Counted from the stretch's first letter, positions 1 to 50,848 are shown. The stretch is DNA of 64,000 bases from Desulfatiglandales bacterium (GCA_963666345.1 OY762721.1:2976001-3040000); one strand, 5' to 3'. Program-made: numbers and translations. The notes: generated from the letters alone by a model not told the origin.

Positions 1-483
1 TACAGCGAACCTGGACAGGGTTCCACCTTCAAGGTTTACCTGCCCAAGGTGAAGGGAGATGTTAAGGGGGAGGAGAAAGAACGAACCCCAGTAATCAAAC
101 TTGCCGGTTTTGAGACCGTTTTAATTGTAGAAGATGATGATAGCCTTCGGAAACTTACTCAAAAGTCTCTCCAGCCCCATGGATACAGAATACTTGTGGC
201 TGAAAACGGCGAAGATGCCTTGAGAGTAAGCAAGGAGCACGAGGGGCCTATTGATCTGCTGATCACTGATGTGGTGATGCCCAGGATAGGCGGTAAGGAA
301 GTCGCAGAACGGCTGCAACCGCTCTACCCACGAATGAAGGTAATTTACATGTCCGGATATACTGACGACTCTATTGTTCATCGCGGTGTTCTGGCACCGG
401 GACTTAATTTTCTCGAAAAGCCGTTTTCACCGGAAGGTTTGGCGCGCAAAGTGCGGGAGGTTCTGGACAAGAAAAAAGATTAA
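1..483 (+). CDS. C-terminal part of hybrid sensor histidine kinase (end of HATPase plus receiver domain); 5'-truncated by window edge
   Basis: Frame is open from base 1 (YSEPGQGSTFKVYLP), then receiver motifs [25 protein letters not shown]. Confidence 0.9.
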   Translation, partial: YSEPGQGSTFKVYLPKVKGDVKGEEKERTPVIKLAGFETVLIVEDDDSLRKLTQKSLQPHGYRILVAENGEDALRVSKEHEGPIDLLITDVVMPRIGGKEVAERLQPLYPRMKVIYMSGYTDDSIVHRGVLAPGLNFLEKPFSPEGLARKVREVLDKKKD

Positions 484-510
484 ATTCGTGCCATAGGTCA
501 CGCCGGTAAA

Positions 511-655
511 ATCAAGTATGATTATCCCAATGGTTGAGAATCTGGTCGCCCTTAAAACTCAAAGATACTGGATGTATCTTTGAGACATGGGCGGTTTAAA
601 TATGATTATCCGATGGTTGACAAATTGGAGGGCCTGAAATTTTCGGATACTGATA
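511..655. repeat. Two tandem degenerate copies (A1 511-575, A2 ~595-655) of a ~60-bp intergenic repeat
   Basis: TATGATTATCC at 517 and 601. Right parts are CCTTAAAACTCAAAGATACTGGATGT and GGCCTGAAATTTTCGGATACTGAT, related to copies at 4316, 4397, 5066 and 5908. Confidence 0.75.
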
Positions 656-784
656 CAATTCGAAACTTTATGACGGTATAATCATACTTTTGAAAATGTA
701 AGTAAGTTTTGGTTTGTATGCCAAAAGCAGATGATATCACTATGATGATGAACCCCTGAGAAATTTAGACAAAGGAGGGTGCAA

Positions 785-1957
785 ATGGAAAGCGTAATAA
801 GACGTTGCCTAATAACAATCCTTGTCTCTATTCTTTTTGTTTCTTTAAATTCGGTCACTATAAGCGCCGCAGAAACTGATCCTGTTCTTAACGAAGGCAA
901 GAAATGGCGCATCGGCTACCTTGAAGGCGGCCCCTATGTTAATTACCAAGGAACGCTGAAATCCATTATAACAAACCTGATGTCCATGGGATGGATTGAA
1001 AAAAGCGATCTCCCTGAGCTTCCAGATCTGGAAGATACCAGGGCTTTATGGGAATGGCTGTCTACCCCCGGCCGAAGCCGATACCTTACATTTGTTGAGG
1101 ACGGATACTGGTCATCCAACTGGAAGAAAGATAAAAGAGCGCAAAAGGTCGAAGAGATAAAAAAACGGATCTCAAATGTTCATGAGTTTGATCTTTTGAT
1201 CGCTATGGGCACTTGGGCTGGACAGGATATGGTCTCAATCACGAATAAAATCCCTGTAATGGTGATGTCTTGCAGCGATCCTGTTAAGGCAAAAATAATT
1301 AAAAGCGTTAAAGATTCGGGCCAAGACAATGTCCATGCATGGTGCGATCCGACCCGTGGTGAAAGACGCCTCCGGCTTTTCCATGACGTCTTGGGATTTA
1401 ATAAGCTGGGCGTTATTTATGAAAATACTGAAGATGGCAGAATTTATGCTGACCTGACGTCGATTCAAAAAGTATCAGGGGAACGCGGCTTTGAAACCGT
1501 TGAGTGTGAAGCCCTTGAAACAGGGCTTTCACTTCAAACAAGCCGAGACAATGTGGCTCGGTGCATCAATAAATTGGCTCAACGGATCGACGCTCTGATA
1601 ATCTCTGATCACCGTGGGCTTCATCCCAAAAATTTTCCGGAACTCATCAATCCGCTTTTAAAAGAGGGCATTCCTGTCTTTACCGCTGTCCGGGGACCAA
1701 CATTGGTAAAACGCGGCGTACTGATGGGAATCGCCCGGGAGGATTACCAACCACTGGGTGGCTTTTACGCAGAAACGATGGCCCGCATTTTTAATGGTTC
1801 CAGCCCCAGGGATTTGACACAAATTTATGAGGAGCCGCTGAAGCTGGCAATTAATCTTGAAGCAGCCCGAATCCTCGGGTATGAAGTTCCACCGAATATC
1901 AAAAAGATTGCCGATATCATATACTCGAAAATCGATCGAAGTCTTATGGAGCAATAG
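785..1957 (+). CDS. ABC-type periplasmic substrate-binding protein (ABC_sub_bind-like), probably sensor-associated
   Basis: Signal-peptide-like N-terminus, DLLIAMGTWAG, SDPVKAKII and LAINLEAARILG motifs; GGAGG RBS before ATG 785. Confidence 0.75.
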   Translation: MESVIRRCLITILVSILFVSLNSVTISAAETDPVLNEGKKWRIGYLEGGPYVNYQGTLKSIITNLMSMGWIEKSDLPELPDLEDTRALWEWLSTPGRSRYLTFVEDGYWSSNWKKDKRAQKVEEIKKRISNVHEFDLLIAMGTWAGQDMVSITNKIPVMVMSCSDPVKAKIIKSVKDSGQDNVHAWCDPTRGERRLRLFHDVLGFNKLGVIYENTEDGRIYADLTSIQKVSGERGFETVECEALETGLSLQTSRDNVARCINKLAQRIDALIISDHRGLHPKNFPELINPLLKEGIPVFTAVRGPTLVKRGVLMGIAREDYQPLGGFYAETMARIFNGSSPRDLTQIYEEPLKLAINLEAARILGYEVPPNIKKIADIIYSKIDRSLMEQ

Positions 1958-1965
1958 GTGGACCA

Positions 1966-4326
1966 ATGATTCGTTGGTTGAAATCCGATTATGCCAAGGC
2001 GATGAGCTTTGCGATAGCTTTTGGTATCCTATTTTGGATTGTCGATGGATATTTCGAATATATATTTTTCCACAAAAATTTGAAATTTCTGCTACTTGAA
2101 GGTCCCGAAACACTTTTGGAATCCCTTTTTACCAAGGTGTCCCTTCACTCGCTTTTTGTAAGGATTTCTTTCCTTTTTGTGGCGTTCCTTGGGGGCTTGT
2201 TACTCTCATTCTTTCTTTACAGGAAAAACCAAATTCAGAAATCACTCCGAATCAGCGAGGAGACTTTTTCAGGTTTTTTCAACCAAGGCAACATCGGAAT
2301 GGCCATCATTTCGTTGGAGAAAGGCTGGGTAAACGTCAACAAAAAACTCTGCCATATGTTAGGATACAGTGAAGAAGAATTGATGCAGAAGACCTGGACG
2401 GAAATGACTCACCCGGACGATCTTGAACCGGATCTGGCGCTGTTTAATAAAATGATAACAGGTGAAATTGACAATTATGAAATGGAAAAGCGCTTCTTTA
2501 GAAAAGACCATAGTGTCATTTATATCCATTTAACGGTCTCGTGCACAAGGATTTCTGACGGCTCCATTGAAAGGGTGTTGGCCACCCTTCAGGATATTTC
2601 CGAGAAAAAAGCTTCGCAGAATCGTATCATCCACTTGAACAGGGTACTTAAGGCGATTCGAGATGTGAATCAACTGATCGTTCGAGAAAAAAACTCGGAA
2701 GAGCTGATTAAAGAAGGTTGTAATCTTTTAGTGAATAATAGGGGTTATGTCTCCGCCCTTATGGTTCTTACTGATGAAAATGACAGTCTTGTTTCCTGGG
2801 CATCGTCTGGTTTTGAAGCGAACGATGATTTAATGAATAGCTTAGCGGAAAGTCATCGATTGCCCCTTTGCCTCAATCCGTCATCCGATAATGAAGTGAT
2901 TTTGATTGAAGGCAATCATGAGGCATGTAGGAATTGTCCTATTTCTGGAGCCTGTGCCGGGAAAAGGACATTGTCTGTTCCGCTGGCGCATGGCGGGGCG
3001 AAATTCGGTTATCTAACTGTTATCTTGGGCACTGATCTTGAGGTGGATGATGAAGAGATAGGTCTCTTTTCGGAGATGGCTGGAGACATAGGCTACGCTC
3101 TCAACTTCATTCGAATGGAAGAAGAACATAAAGCGTCTGAGCATAAAGGGCGGTTGCTTCAAAGTCAGTTGGCGCAGGCTCAAAAAATGGAATCCATAGG
3201 CCGTTTGGCTGGTGGGGTGGCGCATGACTACAACAATATATCCAGCATTATCATCGGCTATTCAGAATTGGCTCTGGAAAAGATAGAACAAGACGATCAA
3301 CTTTATGACGACTTGATAGAGATTTATAGCGCTGCAAAGCGCTCGACGGAAATTACCCGTCAATTGCTGGCTTTTGCTCGTCAACAGACCATTTCTCCCA
3401 AAGTTCTCGACCTAAACGACAGCGTTGAAGGTATGTTAAAAATGCTCAGGAGGCTCATCGGCGAAGACATCGACCTCGCTTGGCTTCCCGGCGCCGATGT
3501 TGGTCCGGTTAGGATCGACCCTTCTCAGGTCGATCAAATCTTGGCAAACCTTTGCGTGAATGCCCGGGACGCCATAGCCGACGTGGGTAAAATCACCATC
3601 GAAACAAAAAATGCCTGCTTTGATGACGTCTATTGCGCCGAACACACAGGATTTATCGAAGGTGAGTTTGTGCTGCTTGCCGTGAGTGACGACGGCAGTG
3701 GAATTCCATCGGAAAACCTGGACAAAATATTCGAGCCATTTTTTACCACAAAGGGTATCGGGAAAGGCACAGGTTTAGGGTTAGCCACTGTTTATGGCAT
3801 CGTTAAACAGAATAATGGATTCATCAACGTATACAGCGAGCCCGAAAAAGGGACGACCATCAGGGTCTATCTTCCTAGGCATACCGGTAGTGTTAGATCA
3901 ACACAGCCCCAAATTGTATCAGAGATTCCGTTAAGCCGAGGTGAATCAATCTTACTTGTCGAAGATGACGGCTCAATTCTAAAACTTGGCAAAAGAATGC
4001 TCAATGATTTGGGGTATAATGTTTTGTCTTCTAATAGTCCGGTCGATGCTCTCCAGTTGGCCAAAGACCATGCCGACAAGATCCATTTGCTGATAACCGA
4101 TGTGGTCATGCCTGAAATGAACGGCCGTGAGCTGTCTGAGAAACTTCAAGCGCTTTATCCTAATCTCAAAACTCTCTTCATGTCCGGTTATACAGCTAAT
4201 GTCATTGCCCACCGCGGTGTGCTGGAAGACGGTGTTAGCTTCATTTCAAAACCATTTTCGAAAAATGACATGGCCGAAAAGGTCCGGCAGGTCTTGGATA
4301 ATGCAATAATCGAAACTCATGATTAA
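1966..4326 (+). CDS. Membrane-anchored PAS/GAF hybrid sensor histidine kinase-response regulator
   Basis: Two TM segments, PAS (THPDD), H-box [11 protein letters not shown]-boxes DDGSG and GKGTGLGL, C-terminal receiver. Confidence 0.93.
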
Positions 4327-4458
4327 TTATCCTAGCCACAACTTTTCAACCGGCCTGAAAACTCAAGGATACTGGATGTTTTAAAGATTGTATAGAATCA
4401 AGTATCCTTGTCCGAAACTGGATCAATCACGGATCATGAAATTTATAGATACCATTAA
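4316..4458. repeat. Two tandem degenerate copies (B1 4316-4379, B2 ~4397-4458) of the ~60-bp repeat; B1 overlaps the kinase stop codon
   Basis: ATTATCC...CCTGAAAACTCAAGGATACTGGATGT. CAAGGATACTGGAT and ATCAAGTATCCTTG form a 14-bp inverted repeat with one mismatch. Confidence 0.75.
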
Positions 4459-4658
4459 TATCCGTAATGATTGACAGGTTATAGCTTAAAAGATATCTAG
4501 GAGACGCTATCTGAGCGACTGATCGACATATATGACGATTGAATGGACTCATGTCTTTTATTTTTGACTTCCGAAATAGTGTTAGGCTCTCCAATAGTCG
4601 TTATTAGAAGTGGATTATATTCTGTTCTTATCAACCAAACCCATATGGAGGAAATCAA

Positions 4659-4922
4659 ATGACCAAAGTCGAATTAATCGAAAAAGTCGCTAGAGATGCA
4701 GGAATCACGAAAAAGGCAGCGAAAAAAGCATTTGATTCTGTGTTGGAAGGTATAAAACAAGGGGTACAAAAAAGGAACCACAAGGTAACTCTTATAGGAT
4801 TCGGTACATTTAAAAATGTTTACAGAAAAACCCGCATGGGTCGAAATCCACAAACTGGTGAAAAAATCAAAATCAAAGGTAAGAGCGTCGTCACCTTCAA
4901 GCCCAGTAAGAATATACTATAG
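4659..4922 (+). CDS. hup: DNA-binding protein HU family
   Basis: MTKVELIEKVA, GFGTF, GRNPQTGEKIKI, FKPSK; GGAGG RBS. Confidence 0.93.
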   Translation: MTKVELIEKVARDAGITKKAAKKAFDSVLEGIKQGVQKRNHKVTLIGFGTFKNVYRKTRMGRNPQTGEKIKIKGKSVVTFKPSKNIL

Positions 4923-4955
4923 AGATACAAAACTGAATATTTAGCCAGCCTGACT

Positions 4956-5054
4956 GCGACGGTGCTGGGAAAAAGGGCCTTTACCTACAAGCCGATTTTA
5001 AGGACCGATCTGACAGAAACGGTCCGAAAAGTGCTGGATGAGGCGAAAGGCTAA
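4956..5054 (+). pseudogene. Orphan C-terminal remnant of a receiver domain
   Basis: Translates ATVLGKRAFTYKPILRTDLTETVRKVLDEAKG*, matching receiver C-termini in this window (GIKAFAMKPLVFKDLADIVRNVLD); no start codon. Confidence 0.7.
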
Positions 5055-5065
5055 ATTTTCACATT

Positions 5066-5118
5066 TTTAACCAGTCACAACTTTTCATCACCACTGAGAA
5101 CTCAAGCTTACTGGATGT
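5066..5118. repeat. Copy C of the ~60-bp repeat
   Basis: 40/53 identical to 4327-4379 by hand alignment (CACAACTTTTCA...CTGA.AACTCAAG..TACTGGATGT). Confidence 0.8.
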
Positions 5119-5207
5119 AGGCATCAATGCAATTGCGGTAATGGGCACGATCAGATAAATGCAAGTAATCGCAACTCGAAAAGATCGAGAAGACGCTGGT
5201 AAAAATC

Positions 5208-5900
5208 ATGTCTGAAAAGCCAACCTATGAAGAATTAGAAAAGCGGGTAAAAGAGCTATCGAACGCCGAATACGAACTAAAACTGGCTGTTGAGAAACTC
5301 AGGCAAAGTGAAAATCGATTTTACAATCTTATTGAAGGTTCTATTCAGGGAGTACTTATCCATCGAGAACACAAGGCGCTTTTTGTAAATCAAAAATGGG
5401 CGAATATACATGGGTATTCACCAGAGGAAGTACTTAGAATGGATACGGTTGTACAATTGATTTCCCCAAAAGATCAGAAGCGGATGATCGAATACAAAGA
5501 AGCACGTAAACAGGGTAAAGACGCTCCTACGGATTATGAATATCAAGGTGTACATAAAAATGGATCTTATATTTGGCTGGATAACAGAGCCAGTGTCGTC
5601 CAATGGGAAGGGCGGAATGCTATCCAAACAACTATTTTTGATATAACCAACCGTAAAAAGGCTGAGGAACAACGGGACAGGTTAATTTCGGACCTTCAAA
5701 AAACACTATCAGAGGTTAAAACATTACAGGGTTTTCTACCCATTTGCTCACATTGCAAAAAAATCCGTGATGACAAGGGTTATTGGAATCAGATCGAATC
5801 ATATATGAACAAACATTCCGATATTGAATTTAGCCACGGTATTTGTCCAGAATGTGCCAAAAAATATTATCCTGATATGCATCTTTATGATGATGAATAG
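5208..5900 (+). CDS. PAS-domain protein with C-terminal Cys-rich (CxxCKKIRDDxGYW...CPEC) domain
   Basis: KPTYEELEKRV coiled coil, PAS fold, LPICSHCKKIRDDKGYWNQIESY...FSHGICPEC. Confidence 0.85.
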   Translation: MSEKPTYEELEKRVKELSNAEYELKLAVEKLRQSENRFYNLIEGSIQGVLIHREHKALFVNQKWANIHGYSPEEVLRMDTVVQLISPKDQKRMIEYKEARKQGKDAPTDYEYQGVHKNGSYIWLDNRASVVQWEGRNAIQTTIFDITNRKKAEEQRDRLISDLQKTLSEVKTLQGFLPICSHCKKIRDDKGYWNQIESYMNKHSDIEFSHGICPECAKKYYPDMHLYDDE

Positions 5901-5907
5901 CTGCAAA

Positions 5908-5962
5908 TAATTATCCTATCCAAAAATTCCGGCCAGCTATAAAAATCAACAATTCCAAAGGT
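5908..5962. repeat. Most degenerate copy (D) of the ~60-bp repeat
   Basis: TAATTATCCTA.CCA.AA.TT and AAAA.TCAA shared with B1; begins a few bp after the stop at 5900. Confidence 0.55.
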
Positions 5963-6322
5963 AATCACAAGAGGGATGACTTTATCTTGTGTCATTGATG
6001 CTGTAAAAGTGGGTGTTATTGCTGGATATCACAGGGTTAACCGAACCTGCGATTTGAAAGTTATCTCATAAAAAGGAAAAAGGCGTCAAATGGTTGGTAT
6101 CTCAGCTTAGTGAAGAACTGTGATATGATCAGAATATCTGTGATCTTTGATGATGAAAATATTCTGGTGTTTTTTGGTGAGATCACAGCAATTGCGATCC
6201 GTGTGATATGAAAGTGGTATCTTTCCTAGCTGGAGATTGAACCAAAACAAATAAATACAGTCCTTGCCTAAACCGCCTACCATTTTATATCATCCCTAGA
6301 AACAAAGCATGACAGGAGTCTT

Positions 6323-6613
6323 ATGCCAATGAGTCTAACCAAAGCTCAAATCGTTGAAGGGATACACCAAGGGACGGGTTTAACAAGAAAACAAGCGGGT
6401 GATGCCTTAGAAGACATCCTTGATATCATTAAGAACAGGCTTGAAACCGGGGAAAGTGTCTTGATTTCAGGTTTTGGTAGGTTTGCAGTCAAGGAAAAGC
6501 GCCCTAGGCGAGGTAGAAACCCTGCCACAGGCAAGTCCATAATGCTTGATGGTAGAAAAGTCGTCAGTTTTAAGTGCTCTGGTGTCCTAAAAGACAGGCT
6601 AAATAAGTCATAA
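6323..6613 (+). CDS. ihfA: Integration host factor alpha-like subunit (island-borne)
   Basis: LTKAQIVE, ISGFGRF, RRGRNPATG, VVSFKCSGVLKDRLN. Confidence 0.88.
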   Translation: MPMSLTKAQIVEGIHQGTGLTRKQAGDALEDILDIIKNRLETGESVLISGFGRFAVKEKRPRRGRNPATGKSIMLDGRKVVSFKCSGVLKDRLNKS

Positions 6614-7326: not shown

Positions 7327-9534
7327 TTAGTCTGAAACAACCTTACTTTTGAGTTTTATCAGACGCTTTTTTGAAGTCCTGTTATAGACTACTTCTACAC
7401 TGTTTTTTTCTAAGACATGGACTGCTCTTTTGAGTTCTTTGCCAATAGCAGCAGGACTGTTGGGAAATCCCTTTAAGTCTTTGTTTTGGTATGACAAATG
7501 CGCCTTCAAGTCGTTCAAAAGGTCGTCAGCAGTACCTTTCCACTGCTTTTTCTTATTCATAAAGGCAACAATGGTTAAAGCCAGGTAATCATTGTGAAGA
7601 CATATCCTGCTTTTTGTTTCAATGTTTTCCTGGTACTTCTTAAGGAACAGGTTGTTTTTCCAAGGCATTGCCGGTTCAGCTGCAACCACCCACTGAGTGA
7701 AATCAGCCATCCTTGGTTTGGTTTTTAAATTAACTTTGCTTAAGTTTTTCAAAGCTTCACTAACACCGTTAATTATACTTCCTAAGATATATGGTTTGTC
7801 ATTTTCAATTCTTGCCCATAACTCCCTTTCAGAAACCCTGTTTTTGTCTGAAATAGAGGGCAGTTCTATGACAATCGACCTGTCTGCTAGATCTGCTCGT
7901 ACAGCCAAATCGTCTATTCCGTTTAGAATTACAGGCCTTACTGCGTTAAAGATTTGCTCTTGAGTGTTGGTGTACTGCTTCCTTACTGACAATCCCCCAC
8001 CGGTTGAAAGTTGACAAAAGGCATCAGACAACCAGCCAGAGAACCTAGAGAGGTTATCGAATGCCAAAACCCAGCTGTTTCTTGCTGATATCATCAAATC
8101 TCTGGTGCTTTGAGGAGGTGTTCTAAGGGGGCCTTCACTCGGGTCGATTAGCTGCTTTAAGAGCTTGGAGGTGGTTGATTTGGCTGACCCCGGCCCACCT
8201 TGCAAGACCAGAATTGGGTAAGGCCCTGATGGATTCATGCTACCTAAAAGCCAGGCAACAATGAGGAGTTTGTCGGCTTTTAGAAAGCTTTTTAGCCTGA
8301 ACTTCCCATCTTTTTCTACTTTTGGGTAAGGCAAGGCCATCATCCCTGTCGGTCTGATAAAATGATAAGGTGGATCAGTTATGATGCACCAGGTTTCAGA
8401 AGTGATCTTTATCACTTCCCTGTTTTGATTTGCCAAGTCTAAATATACTGCCTTCTCTGAACCGGCAACCCTTATATGAACTTCCCTTAGTTCAGACTCA
8501 AATCGAGCCTTGGCATCAAGCAACCCTATAATTCTATCCAAATCAGCCTGAGAAATTACTTTCTTATGTTCGTTGTAATATTGCTTTTGAAGGAGGTTGC
8601 TAAATTCTTTGGATCTTATGGCTAAGGTCTCTTGGCGGTTTTCAACATCAATGACGGCATAACCTTCCCTTATGGCTGTGTGGAAGGTTTTGAGGTTGCT
8701 CAGGAGGTTAGTCCTAAAGTAGTCGAGGCTAGATTTTGATGAATCAGATTTTCCCGGCTCGTATTGCTTAATACTATCAACTATTGCCTCAACCTCTGAT
8801 TCATCTAGCCGGGGCTTACACCTCTTTTTGTTAATAAGTTTCAAGGTAGCTTTGAGCTTTTCCTCGCTGTAACCTTCTGCCCGAAGCTTTCCTGCTATGC
8901 TTGTCAGTTCCGTGTTACGGTGTCCTTTTCTAATCTTGTCATAGGCATATGGTAGGGCTTGGTCGATGGATTTTGCACTTTTTCTAGCTTCCTTTATAGC
9001 TGTCTTAAATCCGTCAGGGTCTGCAAGGTAAATTTCTCTTGCATCCTTGCATTTCTTTTTGAGCCTAATCACCTTAATACGGCTCTTTAAACTTGACTTT
9101 AAAAGCTGCCTGAGAAGGTCTCTACCTCCTTGATCGGGTTCCATCATGAAGTATATTTTCTTGATGTCTTTAAGGTGGTCAGCGTCCCGTTCTTCCTTCC
9201 AGAGATTTGCCCCAGGGACTCCTATTGCAGGAATCTTGTGGTACCAGAGGATGTGACAATCACTTTCCCCTTCTACAATAACAATGTAGCCTTTTTTCTC
9301 AGCTTCATTTAACCGCCAGAGGCCGTATAGTGTGGGGGTCAATCCTGTTTTCCATCTAAACCGGTTTGGGCCTTTGACTGAATTTCGATACCTGACATTG
9401 ATTTCATTATGATCTCTGTCAAAATATGGGATTTTAAGGGAAGTTTTACCCTTGTATTCATTGTCTTCCAAACCTAGTTTTTTCAAAAAGGAAACAGGTA
9501 CTTTTGTTATCTTTCCGTATTTTTTTAAATTCAT
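7327..9534 (-). CDS. Mobile-element primase/helicase-type replication protein (Toprim + PriCT-1 + P-loop ATPase)
   Basis: IVEGESD, GVPGA, EPDQGG and KDARE (Toprim); GHRNTELTSIAG...CKPRLDESEV (PriCT-1); Walker A GGPGSAKST and Walker B-like LAFDN. Confidence 0.8.
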   Translation of the reverse strand: MNLKKYGKITKVPVSFLKKLGLEDNEYKGKTSLKIPYFDRDHNEINVRYRNSVKGPNRFRWKTGLTPTLYGLWRLNEAEKKGYIVIVEGESDCHILWYHKIPAIGVPGANLWKEERDADHLKDIKKIYFMMEPDQGGRDLLRQLLKSSLKSRIKVIRLKKKCKDAREIYLADPDGFKTAIKEARKSAKSIDQALPYAYDKIRKGHRNTELTSIAGKLRAEGYSEEKLKATLKLINKKRCKPRLDESEVEAIVDSIKQYEPGKSDSSKSSLDYFRTNLLSNLKTFHTAIREGYAVIDVENRQETLAIRSKEFSNLLQKQYYNEHKKVISQADLDRIIGLLDAKARFESELREVHIRVAGSEKAVYLDLANQNREVIKITSETWCIITDPPYHFIRPTGMMALPYPKVEKDGKFRLKSFLKADKLLIVAWLLGSMNPSGPYPILVLQGGPGSAKSTTSKLLKQLIDPSEGPLRTPPQSTRDLMISARNSWVLAFDNLSRFSGWLSDAFCQLSTGGGLSVRKQYTNTQEQIFNAVRPVILNGIDDLAVRADLADRSIVIELPSISDKNRVSERELWARIENDKPYILGSIINGVSEALKNLSKVNLKTKPRMADFTQWVVAAEPAMPWKNNLFLKKYQENIETKSRICLHNDYLALTIVAFMNKKKQWKGTADDLLNDLKAHLSYQNKDLKGFPNSPAAIGKELKRAVHVLEKNSVEVVYNRTSKKRLIKLKSKVVSD

Positions 9535-26060: not shown

Positions 26061-26136
<76 letters not shown>

Positions 26137-26147
26137 AAGTGAGCATA

Positions 26148-26224
26148 TGGCGCGCCCGGCAGGATTCGAACCTGCGGCCTACGGGTTCGAAGCCCGGCGC
26201 TCTATCCAGCTGAGCTACGGGCGC
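26148..26224 (-). tRNA. tRNA-Arg(TCG)
   Basis: GCGCCCGTAGCTCAGCTGGATAGAGCGCCGGGCT-TCG-AACCCGTAGGCCGCAGGTTCGAATCCTGCCGGGCGCGCCA. Confidence 0.95.
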
Positions 26225-50492: not shown

Positions 50493-50596
50493 AATCTTCT
50501 GTTTTGATCCCCTTTTCACCGGAGGGGATTGAAGCCCGCCTCTTGAGCCAACGTTTTATGCGTGGGCCTTTTATTTAAGATATCCTTGATGCCGAG

Positions 50597-50735
50597 GGCA
50601 TCTTTTCCGCTTGGGTGAGGATGGACCCTGCGTGACAGGCACTTGCGAACCCCGTCAGATCCGGGAGGAAGCAGCGGTAAGCGAGAAAGCCTGTGTCGTG
50701 GCGGTATCTATCCTCACCCAAGCGGGAAAGATGCC
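50597..50735 (+). ncRNA. ffs: Signal recognition particle (4.5S-type) RNA
   Basis: Helix-8 motif GAACCCCGTCAGATCCGGGAGGAAGCAGCGGT inside a long hairpin (GGCATCTTTTCCGCTTGGGTGAGGAT ... ATCCTCACCCAAGCGGGAAAGATGCC); exact ends uncertain. Confidence 0.9.
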
Positions 50736-50848
50736 TTAAATATGATTTTATCAGGATATGGAAAGCCGGGATTTAAAGGGCCGGCCCCAATTACTTCCAG
50801 GGTGAGACAGTATCCCCTCCCAAAATTGAATGGGCAGGACACTCAGAA

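Follow-up and report, generated by a model that had tools for sequence, protein, structure and literature searches.

Among the described intergenic repeats of bacteria, those of the REP, BIME and REPIN families are, in the sources cited here, short extragenic hairpin-forming repeats located at the 3′ ends of genes or between cistrons and built as mosaics of a few motif types, and the roles proposed for REP and BIME elements in these sources are in mRNA stability, termination and protein binding (PMC2817692, PMC3733652). A repeat of this general appearance, with a unit of ~83 nt, occurs at the beginning of a 64,000-nt stretch of the genome of a Desulfatiglandales bacterium (GCA_963666345.1 OY762721.1:2976001-3040000; hereafter the window), where six units, called A1, A2, B1, B2, C and D, lie among genes for sensory signalling. 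The units constitute an undescribed family of modular, low-copy intergenic repeats, patchily distributed. No description of the ~83-nt repeat was found in the available portions of the literature on Desulfatiglans and Desulfobacterota intergenic repeats and on REP/RAYT mosaics. Our reading, which is a tentative one, is that the units may be a co-transcribed 3′ untranslated region (3′-UTR) or intercistronic repeat that spreads with the 3′ ends of kinase genes and whose modules are mixed by gene conversion. In what follows, G000 is the genome of the window itself (4.16 Mb, a single contig), G122 is another genome and L-numbers designate unit loci from other sources.

Anatomy of the unit

Four parts can be distinguished in the aligned units: a left box of the form ..CTCA(A/T)G..(A/T)ATTATCC, a segment of ~28 nt that comes in discrete classes (alpha, beta, gamma and delta), a nearly invariant core of ~25 nt, CTGAAAACTCAAAGATACTGGATGT, and a right module, r1 and r2 leading into the next unit and r3 (~45 nt) standing ahead of downstream genes. 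The units are head-to-tail direct repeats with a period of 81–84 nt, and the usual array consists of a strong first unit followed by a degenerate second unit that keeps ATTATCC and ..ATAC(C/T) and has often lost the GGA; of the 31 rows, 11 have a second ATTATCC-like box at +150 to +153 (the first being expected at ~+70), and L026 has in addition a third, at +236. Conservation of box sequence, not of structure, is the dominant signal in the units. The core is far better conserved than the adjoining coding DNA: behind the two hybrid sensor kinase genes of the window (K1 and K2) and a receiver-domain gene stump, 25 of the 32 last aligned core columns are invariant, the coding 3′ ends of the same three genes being ~60–70% identical by a by-eye estimate.

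In the window the 21-nt core sequence AAACTCAAGGATACTGGATGT is present at 555-575 (one mismatch), 4359-4379 (no mismatch) and 5098-5118 (three mismatches), i.e., in A1, B1 and C, and the two-box pattern (ATTATCC, a gap of 24–34 nt, start of the core) at 521-568 and 4326-4372; these three and two occurrences, respectively, compare with 0.00 expected in either case (100 shuffles for the core). When the units are compared by nhmmer with a profile of five strong units (the first profile), A1 (509-577, class beta, ATTATCC box 521-527) scores E 3.6e-16, B1 (4313-4381, class delta, box 4326-4332) 1.1e-15 and C (5052-5120, class delta, devoid of the ATTATCC box) 1.7e-10, the values obtained with model R1 being 3.2e-15, 7.7e-17 and 6.4e-9, respectively. 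C continues into a right module r3 (5119-5167), which is common to the units at 1.62 Mb in G000 and in L031, L041, L043 and G122 and is by eye identical to the module after a beta-class unit of G122. A2 (598-655) is a degenerate second unit with E 0.12 by the first profile and 2.1e-5 when a profile of second units is run on the own genome, whereas B2 (4398-4453), of the same type and by eye homologous to the second units of L025, L034 and L044, has E 3.5e-4 by the latter; at B2, positions 4397-4410 are the 3′ arm of an imperfect 14-nt hairpin whose 5′ arm is 4364-4377. An iterated profile seeded on second units alone gave 56 matches and recovered first and second units alike. D (5907-5962), a divergent unit of the second type, is the weakest of the six, being marginal at E 0.089 and ninth in rank in the own genome, where it is tied with a twin (G000 1174840-1174795) that lies directly 3′ of a paralogous PAS/Cys-rich gene; D matches the left end of B1 at 86% identity in a stretch of 21 nt, and by eye it is similar both to the unit that follows the kinase at 3.998 Mb and to two second units, those of L027 and L039. 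All units and r3 are on the + strand.

A preliminary description of the region had listed six related units, and both their coordinates and their motifs are borne out, with D marginal only. The stop codons that it placed beside them are present (481-483, 4324-4326, 5052-5054 and 5898-5900), and the pairing that it reported corresponds to spacings of 83 nt between A1 and A2 and of 81 nt between B1 and B2; the likeness of B1 and C also holds, but as 80% identity over 46 nt and not as the 40 of 53 positions originally given. As to the inverted arms said to bracket several units, they exist at A1/A2, where an inverted copy of the unit left end at 675-689 (− strand) together with 514-528 encloses the doublet (15 nt, 93% complementary), but they are not a general feature of other loci. 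This inverted repeat gives the A1/A2 doublet an outline of 176 nt that resembles a miniature inverted-repeat transposable element (MITE).

Extent of the family

The own genome yields five matches at E ≤ 1.7e-10 with the first profile and eight at E ≤ 3.5e-4 with the second, altogether nine robust units, which are distributed over five places (1.177 Mb, 1.622 Mb, 2.945 Mb with two units, window A with two and window B–C with three), and three more that are marginal. A BLAST search with one unit in 41 genomes (the own genome and 40 relatives) found two others below E 0.01, and a sequence-only model made from 27 units, run on 105 genomes from the GTDB family, detected the repeat in five, one of them the own genome, the remaining 100 having no unit at E ≤ 1e-3. 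Scans for the exact core gave nine loci in a collection of species genomes and 22 in metagenomes; 29 of these 31 are units by nhmmer, several of them duplicating each other or the own genome, while L033 and L035 were rejected by the same program as chance or coding matches. Five genomes reached through these loci have one to three matches each, and no units were found in the viral contigs and plasmids searched. The carriers are a few sulfate-reducer-type genomes, from a Desulfatiglandaceae-type family by GTDB and some metagenome-assembled genomes of Desulfobacterales. Rfam 15 gave no match at the gathering score in the window units and none at E ≤ 1 in L002, L025, L026 and L046, by which result a known RNA family was ruled out.

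Position and orientation relative to genes

An upstream open reading frame (ORF) is present in 26 of 28 unit rows and is co-oriented with the unit in 25 of these 26, the sole one that is not being a 73-aa ORF without family; the distance from the upstream stop to the unit ranges from −9 to +242 nt. The upstream genes are mostly PAS-HisKA-HATPase-REC hybrids, but units are found also 3′ of unrelated genes (MFS transporter, radical SAM, HEPN, RR-GGDEF), and near-identical alpha units follow unrelated genes, with unrelated flanks, in L042, L047, L048, L002 and L037. In L002 (cytochrome c/rhodanese) and L029 (sigma-54 activator) the downstream gene, as identified by Pfam, is convergent, so that the unit goes with the 3′ end of the upstream gene and not with a downstream promoter. 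The earlier claim of one family of stop-codon-proximal units, running in the direction of the upstream gene and situated mostly among sensor genes, is in agreement with these data.

The connection with the upstream gene can be very close, its stop codon often falling within the left box of the unit. By eye, a stop codon stands directly before a TTATCC-like box (TTAyCC, TTATGCC, TTACGG or TTGCGG), in a single frame, in 13 loci, which include B1, L025, L036, L047, L041, L034, L039 and the stump of L026 as well as G000 1.177 Mb, the stump of G122, L063 and L064; at B1 the TAA of K2 (4324-4326) overlaps the first base of the ATTATCC box. In these loci the left box of the unit doubles as the final three codons (xCT CAw Gxx), always read in the same frame, and since the left box encodes the last codons, kinases ending in REC and PAS/Cys-rich proteins share similar tails (..TQG*, ..AHA*, ..SHD*).

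Local hairpins

Two alternative stem-loops involve the beginning of the right module. In H1 the core segment CTCAAAGATAC pairs with the start of the right module, with 90.3% of cells paired in 14 loci as opposed to at most 52.6% when the partner is slid, and in the 14 loci that carry r1 or r2 the loop is invariably TGGAT; in A1, H1 is formed by 558-568 and 574-584. In H2 the same stretch of the right module pairs instead with the left box of the following unit (CTTGAG/CTCAAG) across a 10-nt loop, with 82.7% of cells paired vs at most 51.5% after sliding; in A1 it is formed by 579-584 and 595-600, as an alternative to H1. Both stems of A1 are on the + strand. Four of the seven H2 pairs are changed on both sides, and the covariation score of H2 is reached in none of 500 shuffles; eight cells are G-U, and the four unpaired cells, all at one pair, are by eye T-T and not A-C. 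This pattern favours folding of the sense strand. Furthermore, each left class contains 6–8 nt that are complementary to the core, the part concerned differing from class to class, and the one helix of this type that was tested is 79.5% paired vs at most 44.6% slid; such a helix cannot covary because the core never changes. H1, H2 and the left-class helices are local and compete with one another.

The evidence fits small local hairpins, not a large structured RNA, and a global RNA fold was rejected in view of a weak alifold consensus (five pairs) and of z-scores around −1 on both strands. Scanning the units for promoters or terminators gave nothing above shuffles; of the nine terminator-like sites in window 1-6600 none lies within a unit, the unit stems being A+T-rich and without a run of T. 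Neither r3 nor the L039 module holds up as a sigma-54 element, the spacing being wrong by eye, and interpretation as an IHF site likewise failed by eye.

Reassortment of modules and duplication of kinase ends

When left classes and right modules are tabulated against each other, by hand and after removal of duplicates and of three chance matches, 11 of the 12 combinations of alpha–delta with r1–r3 are seen, some being preferred (gamma with r1, beta with r2). The exchange can be followed between near relatives, in which homology ceases either at the ATTATCC box or where the core ends; the units do coincide with junctions, as had been suspected. Thus, C and the G122 unit are identical in r3 and in the end of the core and differ in their left halves (delta vs beta); the kinase flank of L022/G122 is 93% identical to the own locus at 2.945 Mb up to the ATTATCC box, beyond which it has alpha in place of beta, then the same core and then unrelated sequence. 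L041 and the own 1.62-Mb locus are 100% identical over 127 nt rightward from the box and unrelated leftward, a comparison in which a chimeric assembly is possible. By these comparisons of sequence, exchange takes place at both conserved boxes.

The duplicated material extends into the genes. The last ~1.1 kb of K1, which encodes the transmitter (HisKA-HATPase-REC), has 91–94% DNA identity to L022, and to that part of L022 the own kinases at 2.945 Mb and 1.177 Mb are 93% and 91% identical, respectively; the matching spans are window 1-483, G000 2.944-2.9456 Mb and 1.1768-1.1779 Mb, and L022, and at least some of the sensor parts at the N-terminus are different. Transmitter module and flank together form a repeated segment. 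Receiver-domain stumps of varied length accompany units in window C, L026, L044 and G122, and at G000 2969989 a remnant consists of a stump tail and a truncated left box. In L083 (G122:C1:120001-140000, reverse strand 3003-5340), two ORFs of 536 and 113 aa that resemble an insertion sequence sever a receiver-domain gene, leaving a stump and a unit ahead of a kinase that shares the K1 transmitter module; this putative insertion sequence may illustrate one way in which stumps arise.

Tests of a gene-cassette system

The preliminary description had proposed that the units may be recombination sites of a cassette system housed in a tRNA-integrated island, with HU/IHF as cofactors. The parts of this idea that survive are those given above, i.e., one family, located at stop codons and reassorting; the link to a recombinase, HU as a cassette and the island find no support. 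The own genome has 14 PF00589 matches, none closer to a unit than 18.7 kb, and no integrase domain was found at the four own-genome unit places screened; among the 69 ORFs screened, own places included, integrase ORFs stand beside units in two of 22 outside loci (one in L034, two in L037). The 17 PF01797 matches of the own genome (Y1 transposase) are at least ~114 kb from a unit by arithmetic on their positions, and a link to IS200/IS605 or RAYT elements was rejected, these 17 having neither a nearby unit nor a nearby match to the unit profile. HU genes have units upstream in four loci, but in L042 and L025 terminator-like hairpins, and not units, follow them. Units at 1.17, 1.62, 2.945 and 3.998 Mb, outside any island, contradict confinement to one. 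As for the tRNA-integrated element, no integrase domain turned up among the ORFs tested in the 6–30 kb interval of the window, for which reason the tRNAs at 26.06–26.22 kb do not define a demonstrated island; the genes are tRNA-Lys(CTT) and tRNA-Arg(TCG) (26061-26224). The sole hint of a mobile past for the region is an ORF of 735 aa (7327-9534, − strand) in which a PriCT-1 primase C-terminal domain is found.

The junctions, too, speak for gene conversion or ordinary recombination rather than for a single-site recombinase, in that crossovers fall at two or more boxes and the gene stumps are of varied length. In L043 the RR-GGDEF gene known from the own 1.62-Mb locus is missing; one end of this deletion lies inside the gene and the other ~130 nt beyond it, and neither coincides with the unit. 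Apparent excision joints such as 575>5121 (three letters between, in three runs) came from contigs of four metagenome runs, which are too short for bridging to be judged; these joints are not deletions, because other combinations of units (e.g., that at 1.62 Mb) explain them. A search of 105 family genomes for an empty site, made with the MASE3 kinase that follows the 1.62-Mb unit, returned paralogues and truncated contigs only. The absence of attC ends, already noted at the outset, was confirmed: GTTRRRY occurs in none of 27 aligned units, RYYYAAC somewhere in six of them, and both attC motifs at the ends in none. Nothing shows the repeat to be a gene-cassette recombination system.

Two observations concern integrases in the vicinity of units. 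The sequence after the L022 unit recurs at G000:C1:1602189-1603140 (85% over 101 nt) beside a frameshifted integrase whose protein is 77% identical to that of the integrase beside the L034 unit; this recurrence is a lead, not a link. L037:2650-5018, which directly follows an alpha unit, contains a Cys-rich ORF of 147 aa, a second ORF of 156 aa and, side by side, two tyrosine-recombinase ORFs, and this stretch may be the terminal part of an integrated element that adjoins the unit; the gene ahead of this unit is taken to be a relative of K1 from its similar C-terminal tail and 3′ flank.

A proposed mechanism and its alternatives

What is directly observed is membership of the family, the position, orientation and period of the units, a covarying hairpin, reassortment and the lack of a nearby recombinase. 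A co-transcribed element acting in the sense direction at the 3′ end best fits the strict orientation, which holds also behind unrelated genes, the covarying sense hairpin, the invariant core and the fixed phase; transmitter duplication, stumps, several crossover points and the absence of a linked recombinase, in turn, fit a family carried by kinase 3′ ends and patched by gene conversion. Transcription, function at the RNA level and the kind of recombination are what we infer. The units would be transcribed together with the upstream gene and their RNA would form the mutually exclusive local stem-loops H1 (loop UGGAU) and H2, which a sequence-specific factor would probably read; as a 3′-UTR or intercistronic module common to a set of signalling genes, they could serve mRNA 3′-end processing or stability or protein binding, e.g., by protecting the 3′ end, by offering a processing site or by being the platform of a binding protein. 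Spread would occur by duplication with the last part of kinase genes, which would account for the gene stumps, and the invariant boxes would be short patches of homology at which gene conversion or homologous recombination reassorts modules and sometimes neighbouring genes, a dedicated cassette recombinase not being needed. Should this be correct, the few known families of modular intergenic repeats in bacteria would be joined by a new one from a poorly studied group, with the unusual traits of very low copy number, strict sense orientation, a fixed 83-nt phase and a stop codon supplied to the upstream gene. The near-invariant 25-nt core would have to be read by something, and a set of sensor kinases would share a post-transcriptional (or architectural) layer; short conserved boxes serving as seams for the re-joining of neighbouring signalling genes would here have a concrete case.

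Several facts weigh against this proposal. Among sequencing runs, no RNA run was found to contain the stretch. Folding is weak and alike on the two strands (mean z −0.96 sense and −1.09 antisense in 28 units), the RNAalifold consensus retains five pairs only, and the covariation of H1 is not above shuffles in its 14 loci; that of H2 rests on 14 related sequences and is in part a contrast between r1 and r2, whose stems may differ by a one-base shift. The core is conserved as sequence, which a DNA-binding protein would fit equally, and the strict 83-nt period corresponds to eight helical turns. Many paralogous kinases are without units (in a sample of ten drawn by a narrow regular expression, five have a unit, one the left box only and four neither), and co-orientation is partly a consequence of co-duplication with gene ends.

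Serious rivals are plain relics and a DNA-level array. That the units are functionless, being partial duplications of kinase 3′ ends with their flanks which gene conversion has patched and which are conserved only because they are recent, is a possibility to which we give limited credit. The receiver-domain stumps that travel with units (window 4959-5054, L026, L044, G122), the duplication of transmitter and flank at 91–94% DNA identity and the low, patchy occurrence (five of 105 family genomes, one to three matches in each of five others) speak in its favour, as does the kinase coding end (..GTGCTGGATGAGGC..), which by eye is core-like and lies about one period upstream of the core; relics, however, would hardly have a core so much better conserved than the adjoining coding DNA (25 of 32 columns vs ~60–70%), near-identical alpha units behind unrelated genes with unrelated flanks, sharp module boundaries, compensatory changes in H2 and a maintained 83-nt phase. 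Somewhat more doubtful is an array of DNA sites for a nucleoid protein (e.g., HU/IHF-like) or a regulator that organises the junction of two transcription units. The dominance of box sequence over structure, with ATTATCC and the GATAC part kept in second units, the strict 81–84-nt period, the equally weak folding of both strands and the HU-family genes adjoining units at four places (two genes in the window, L025, L042 and L044) are what such an array would present, and because the ATTATCC and GATAC boxes alternate every ~41 nt they would all be exposed on the same side of the helix. An orientation strictly tied to the upstream gene (25 of 26) is nevertheless not something that a symmetric DNA site requires; H2 covaries with G-U and without A-C pairs, which points to a single strand, and the ORFs screened offer no candidate regulator common to all loci.

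We regard as improbable a dedicated, undescribed recombination system, site-specific or of the single-strand HUH type, by which sensor genes would be moved or shuffled in the manner of cassettes, and give no greater credence to the more precise version in which core and ATTATCC box are the joints of a gene-shuffling device that swaps whole sensor genes and 3′ tails between loci, the boxes being cut by a recombinase encoded elsewhere or on elements like those at L034 and L037, or else by a single-strand nuclease reading the covarying hairpin. Single-strand nucleases do use a layout of hairpin followed by conserved box, and the almost free reassortment of left halves, core and right halves, the breaks of homology exactly at boxes in five comparisons, the three strong units ~3 kb apart, each after a gene, in G122 as in the window, the integrase ORFs directly adjoining units in L034 and L037 and the recurrence of the L022 post-unit sequence beside a broken integrase would be accommodated by such a system, which would amount to a new type of recombination and to a cassette-like reassortment of signalling modules unlike integrons, dif modules and shufflons. 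It is disfavoured by the distances of PF00589 (18.7 kb) and Y1 (~114 kb) matches in the own genome, by crossovers at two or more boxes with stumps of varying length, by HU genes that elsewhere are not unit-bounded, by the L043 deletion whose ends are not at the unit, by the lack of units in viral contigs and plasmids and of GTTRRRY in 27 units, and by the origin of the joints of four metagenome runs in combinations of paralogous units. A CsrA/Rsm-type binding site seems very unlikely. The core hairpin GAUAC-UGGAU-GUAUC exposes GGA in a 5-nt loop (UGGAU in 14 of 14 r1/r2 loci), the own genome has one csrA gene and the core resembles the SELEX consensus RUACARGGAUGU, for which the cited source gives a preference for GGA in a hairpin loop and an ACA conserved at 100% (PMC4347634). 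That ACA is not matched (AC-U; core AUAC-UGGAUGU), there is one conserved GGA per unit, second units keep ATAC and often lose GGA, and units with other right modules do not, by eye, keep H1; as a lead, the loop's likeness to the SELEX site breaks down at the conserved ACA and at the second units. Least credible of all is that the units encode small peptides, such as a 21-aa ORF from the ATG of ATGATTATCC that partly overlaps the kinase stop. A1 and B1 do both have 21-aa ORFs ending ..LKTQ(R/G)YWM.., and several beta-class differences are by eye synonymous in that frame, yet an extra A breaks the frame in alpha units (L002), the ATG is replaced by ATA, ATC, TTT or TTA, no Shine–Dalgarno sequence is present, and the A/B frames are at most 52 aa long, eight of nine tested having no Pfam match and the ninth one at chance level (E 0.068); with neither frame nor ATG conserved and Pfam essentially null, this reading was rejected.

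Genes and other features around the units

The genes of the unit region (1 to 6613) are all on the + strand. The first, K1, is represented in the window by its 3′ end (1-483; receiver domain, Pfam Response_reg E 6e-22), the full gene of 660 aa beginning upstream. Just upstream of the window (G000:C1:2973700-2974500) the genes resemble by eye the end of KaiC and a KaiB-like protein ahead of K1, which on this arrangement of genes may be the output kinase of a Kai-type module. A substrate-binding-like gene (779-1957) and K2 (1966-4326; PAS-GAF-HisKA-HATPase-REC by Pfam) follow. Downstream of B1/B2 lies an HU-family gene (4659-4922; Pfam Bac_DNA_binding E 3e-27) and then the stump (4959-5054, ...AFTYKPILRTDLTETVRKVLDEAKG*), which aligns with the 3′ ends of K1 and K2; its frame (4923-5051), open only from the HU stop onward, ends ...TVRKVLDEAKG*, so that the gene stump postulated ahead of C is real and is a receiver-domain C-terminus.

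The region continues with a PAS protein with a Cys-rich C-terminus (5208-5900; by Pfam PAS only, residues 37-147 of 230), whose paralogues end directly in units in L025, L031 and L047, and with an IHF/HU-like gene (6323-6613). The family of sensors to which the former belongs (window 5208-5900; L025, L031, L047; G000 1174847-1176592) ends in a conserved Cys-rich stretch, ..CPECAKKYYPDM.., which is covered by no Pfam model, its proteins recurring beside units; the sensory part differs, being PAS in the window copy and dCache-HAMP in the copy at 1.175 Mb of G000. Ahead of the IHF/HU-like gene, window 6000-6240 contains several palindromes of the type TGTGAT...ATCACA, presumably Crp/Fnr-type sites, and similar motifs are found after units in L027, L039, L050, L063, L078 and L081. 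An ordinary SRP RNA is encoded at 50551-50743.

Comparison with known systems

A MITE has terminal inverted repeats and a target-site duplication. To the 15-nt inverted repeat around A1/A2 may be added an inverted GGATAAT-like box, which in L026 follows the array (one locus with two rows) and in L022 is present at two distant places, other inverted matches lying at or before the left box of a unit. An inverted terminal box was dismissed as a general end of the arrays, and by eye no duplicated flank that could be a target-site duplication was seen at the units examined. The BOX elements of Streptococcus pneumoniae are modular intergenic repeats as well, with sub-units in series, a variable number of middle modules and a predicted fold; they amount to about a hundred copies per genome, and we know of no tie between them and the stop codons of sensor genes. 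They differ from the units in phylum, in sequence and in their higher copy number.

With attC sites the units share a position next to stop codons and between co-oriented genes, a variable inner part and some self-complementarity. However, an attC site has RYYYAAC/GTTRRRY ends, is an imperfect palindrome over its whole length and belongs to an array that an integron integrase with attI adjoins, whereas the units are without GTTRRRY (0/27), have only local stems of 5–11 bp and, in the own genome, are no nearer than 18.7 kb to a PF00589 match, by a model that is general and not IntI-specific; moreover, unlike attC cassettes, they occur in tandem without genes between them, and genes are not consistently bounded by units. 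Modules of the dif/Xer kind have a 28-nt site of 11-6-11 layout, which according to the preliminary description the units lack. The likeness to the CsrA/RsmA hairpins of CsrB/RsmZ-type RNAs consists of repeated hairpins, GGA in the loop and a core resembling RUACARGGAUGU, from which the units depart in the ACA, in their single conserved GGA and in that no separate small RNA gene with promoter and terminator is evident.

REPs are 20–40-nt palindromes with a GTAG or CGTC tag; a genome usually has more than 100 of them, neighbouring copies alternate in orientation, and a RAYT (Y1) transposase is associated with them. The units are ~83 nt long, carry each tag in one of 27 cases and never at the foot of a stem, number at most 12 per genome, stand in direct tandem with an 81–84-nt period and, in the own genome, have their nearest PF01797 match ~114 kb away. 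As regards the extragenic 3′-end location that typifies REP, BIME and REPIN elements, on the other hand, the units conform to it, with gaps of −9 to +242 nt and 25 of 26 co-oriented. The family fails the defining features of REP/BIME elements, of attC sites and of CsrA sponges alike, and among these it is like REP/BIME elements that it works most.

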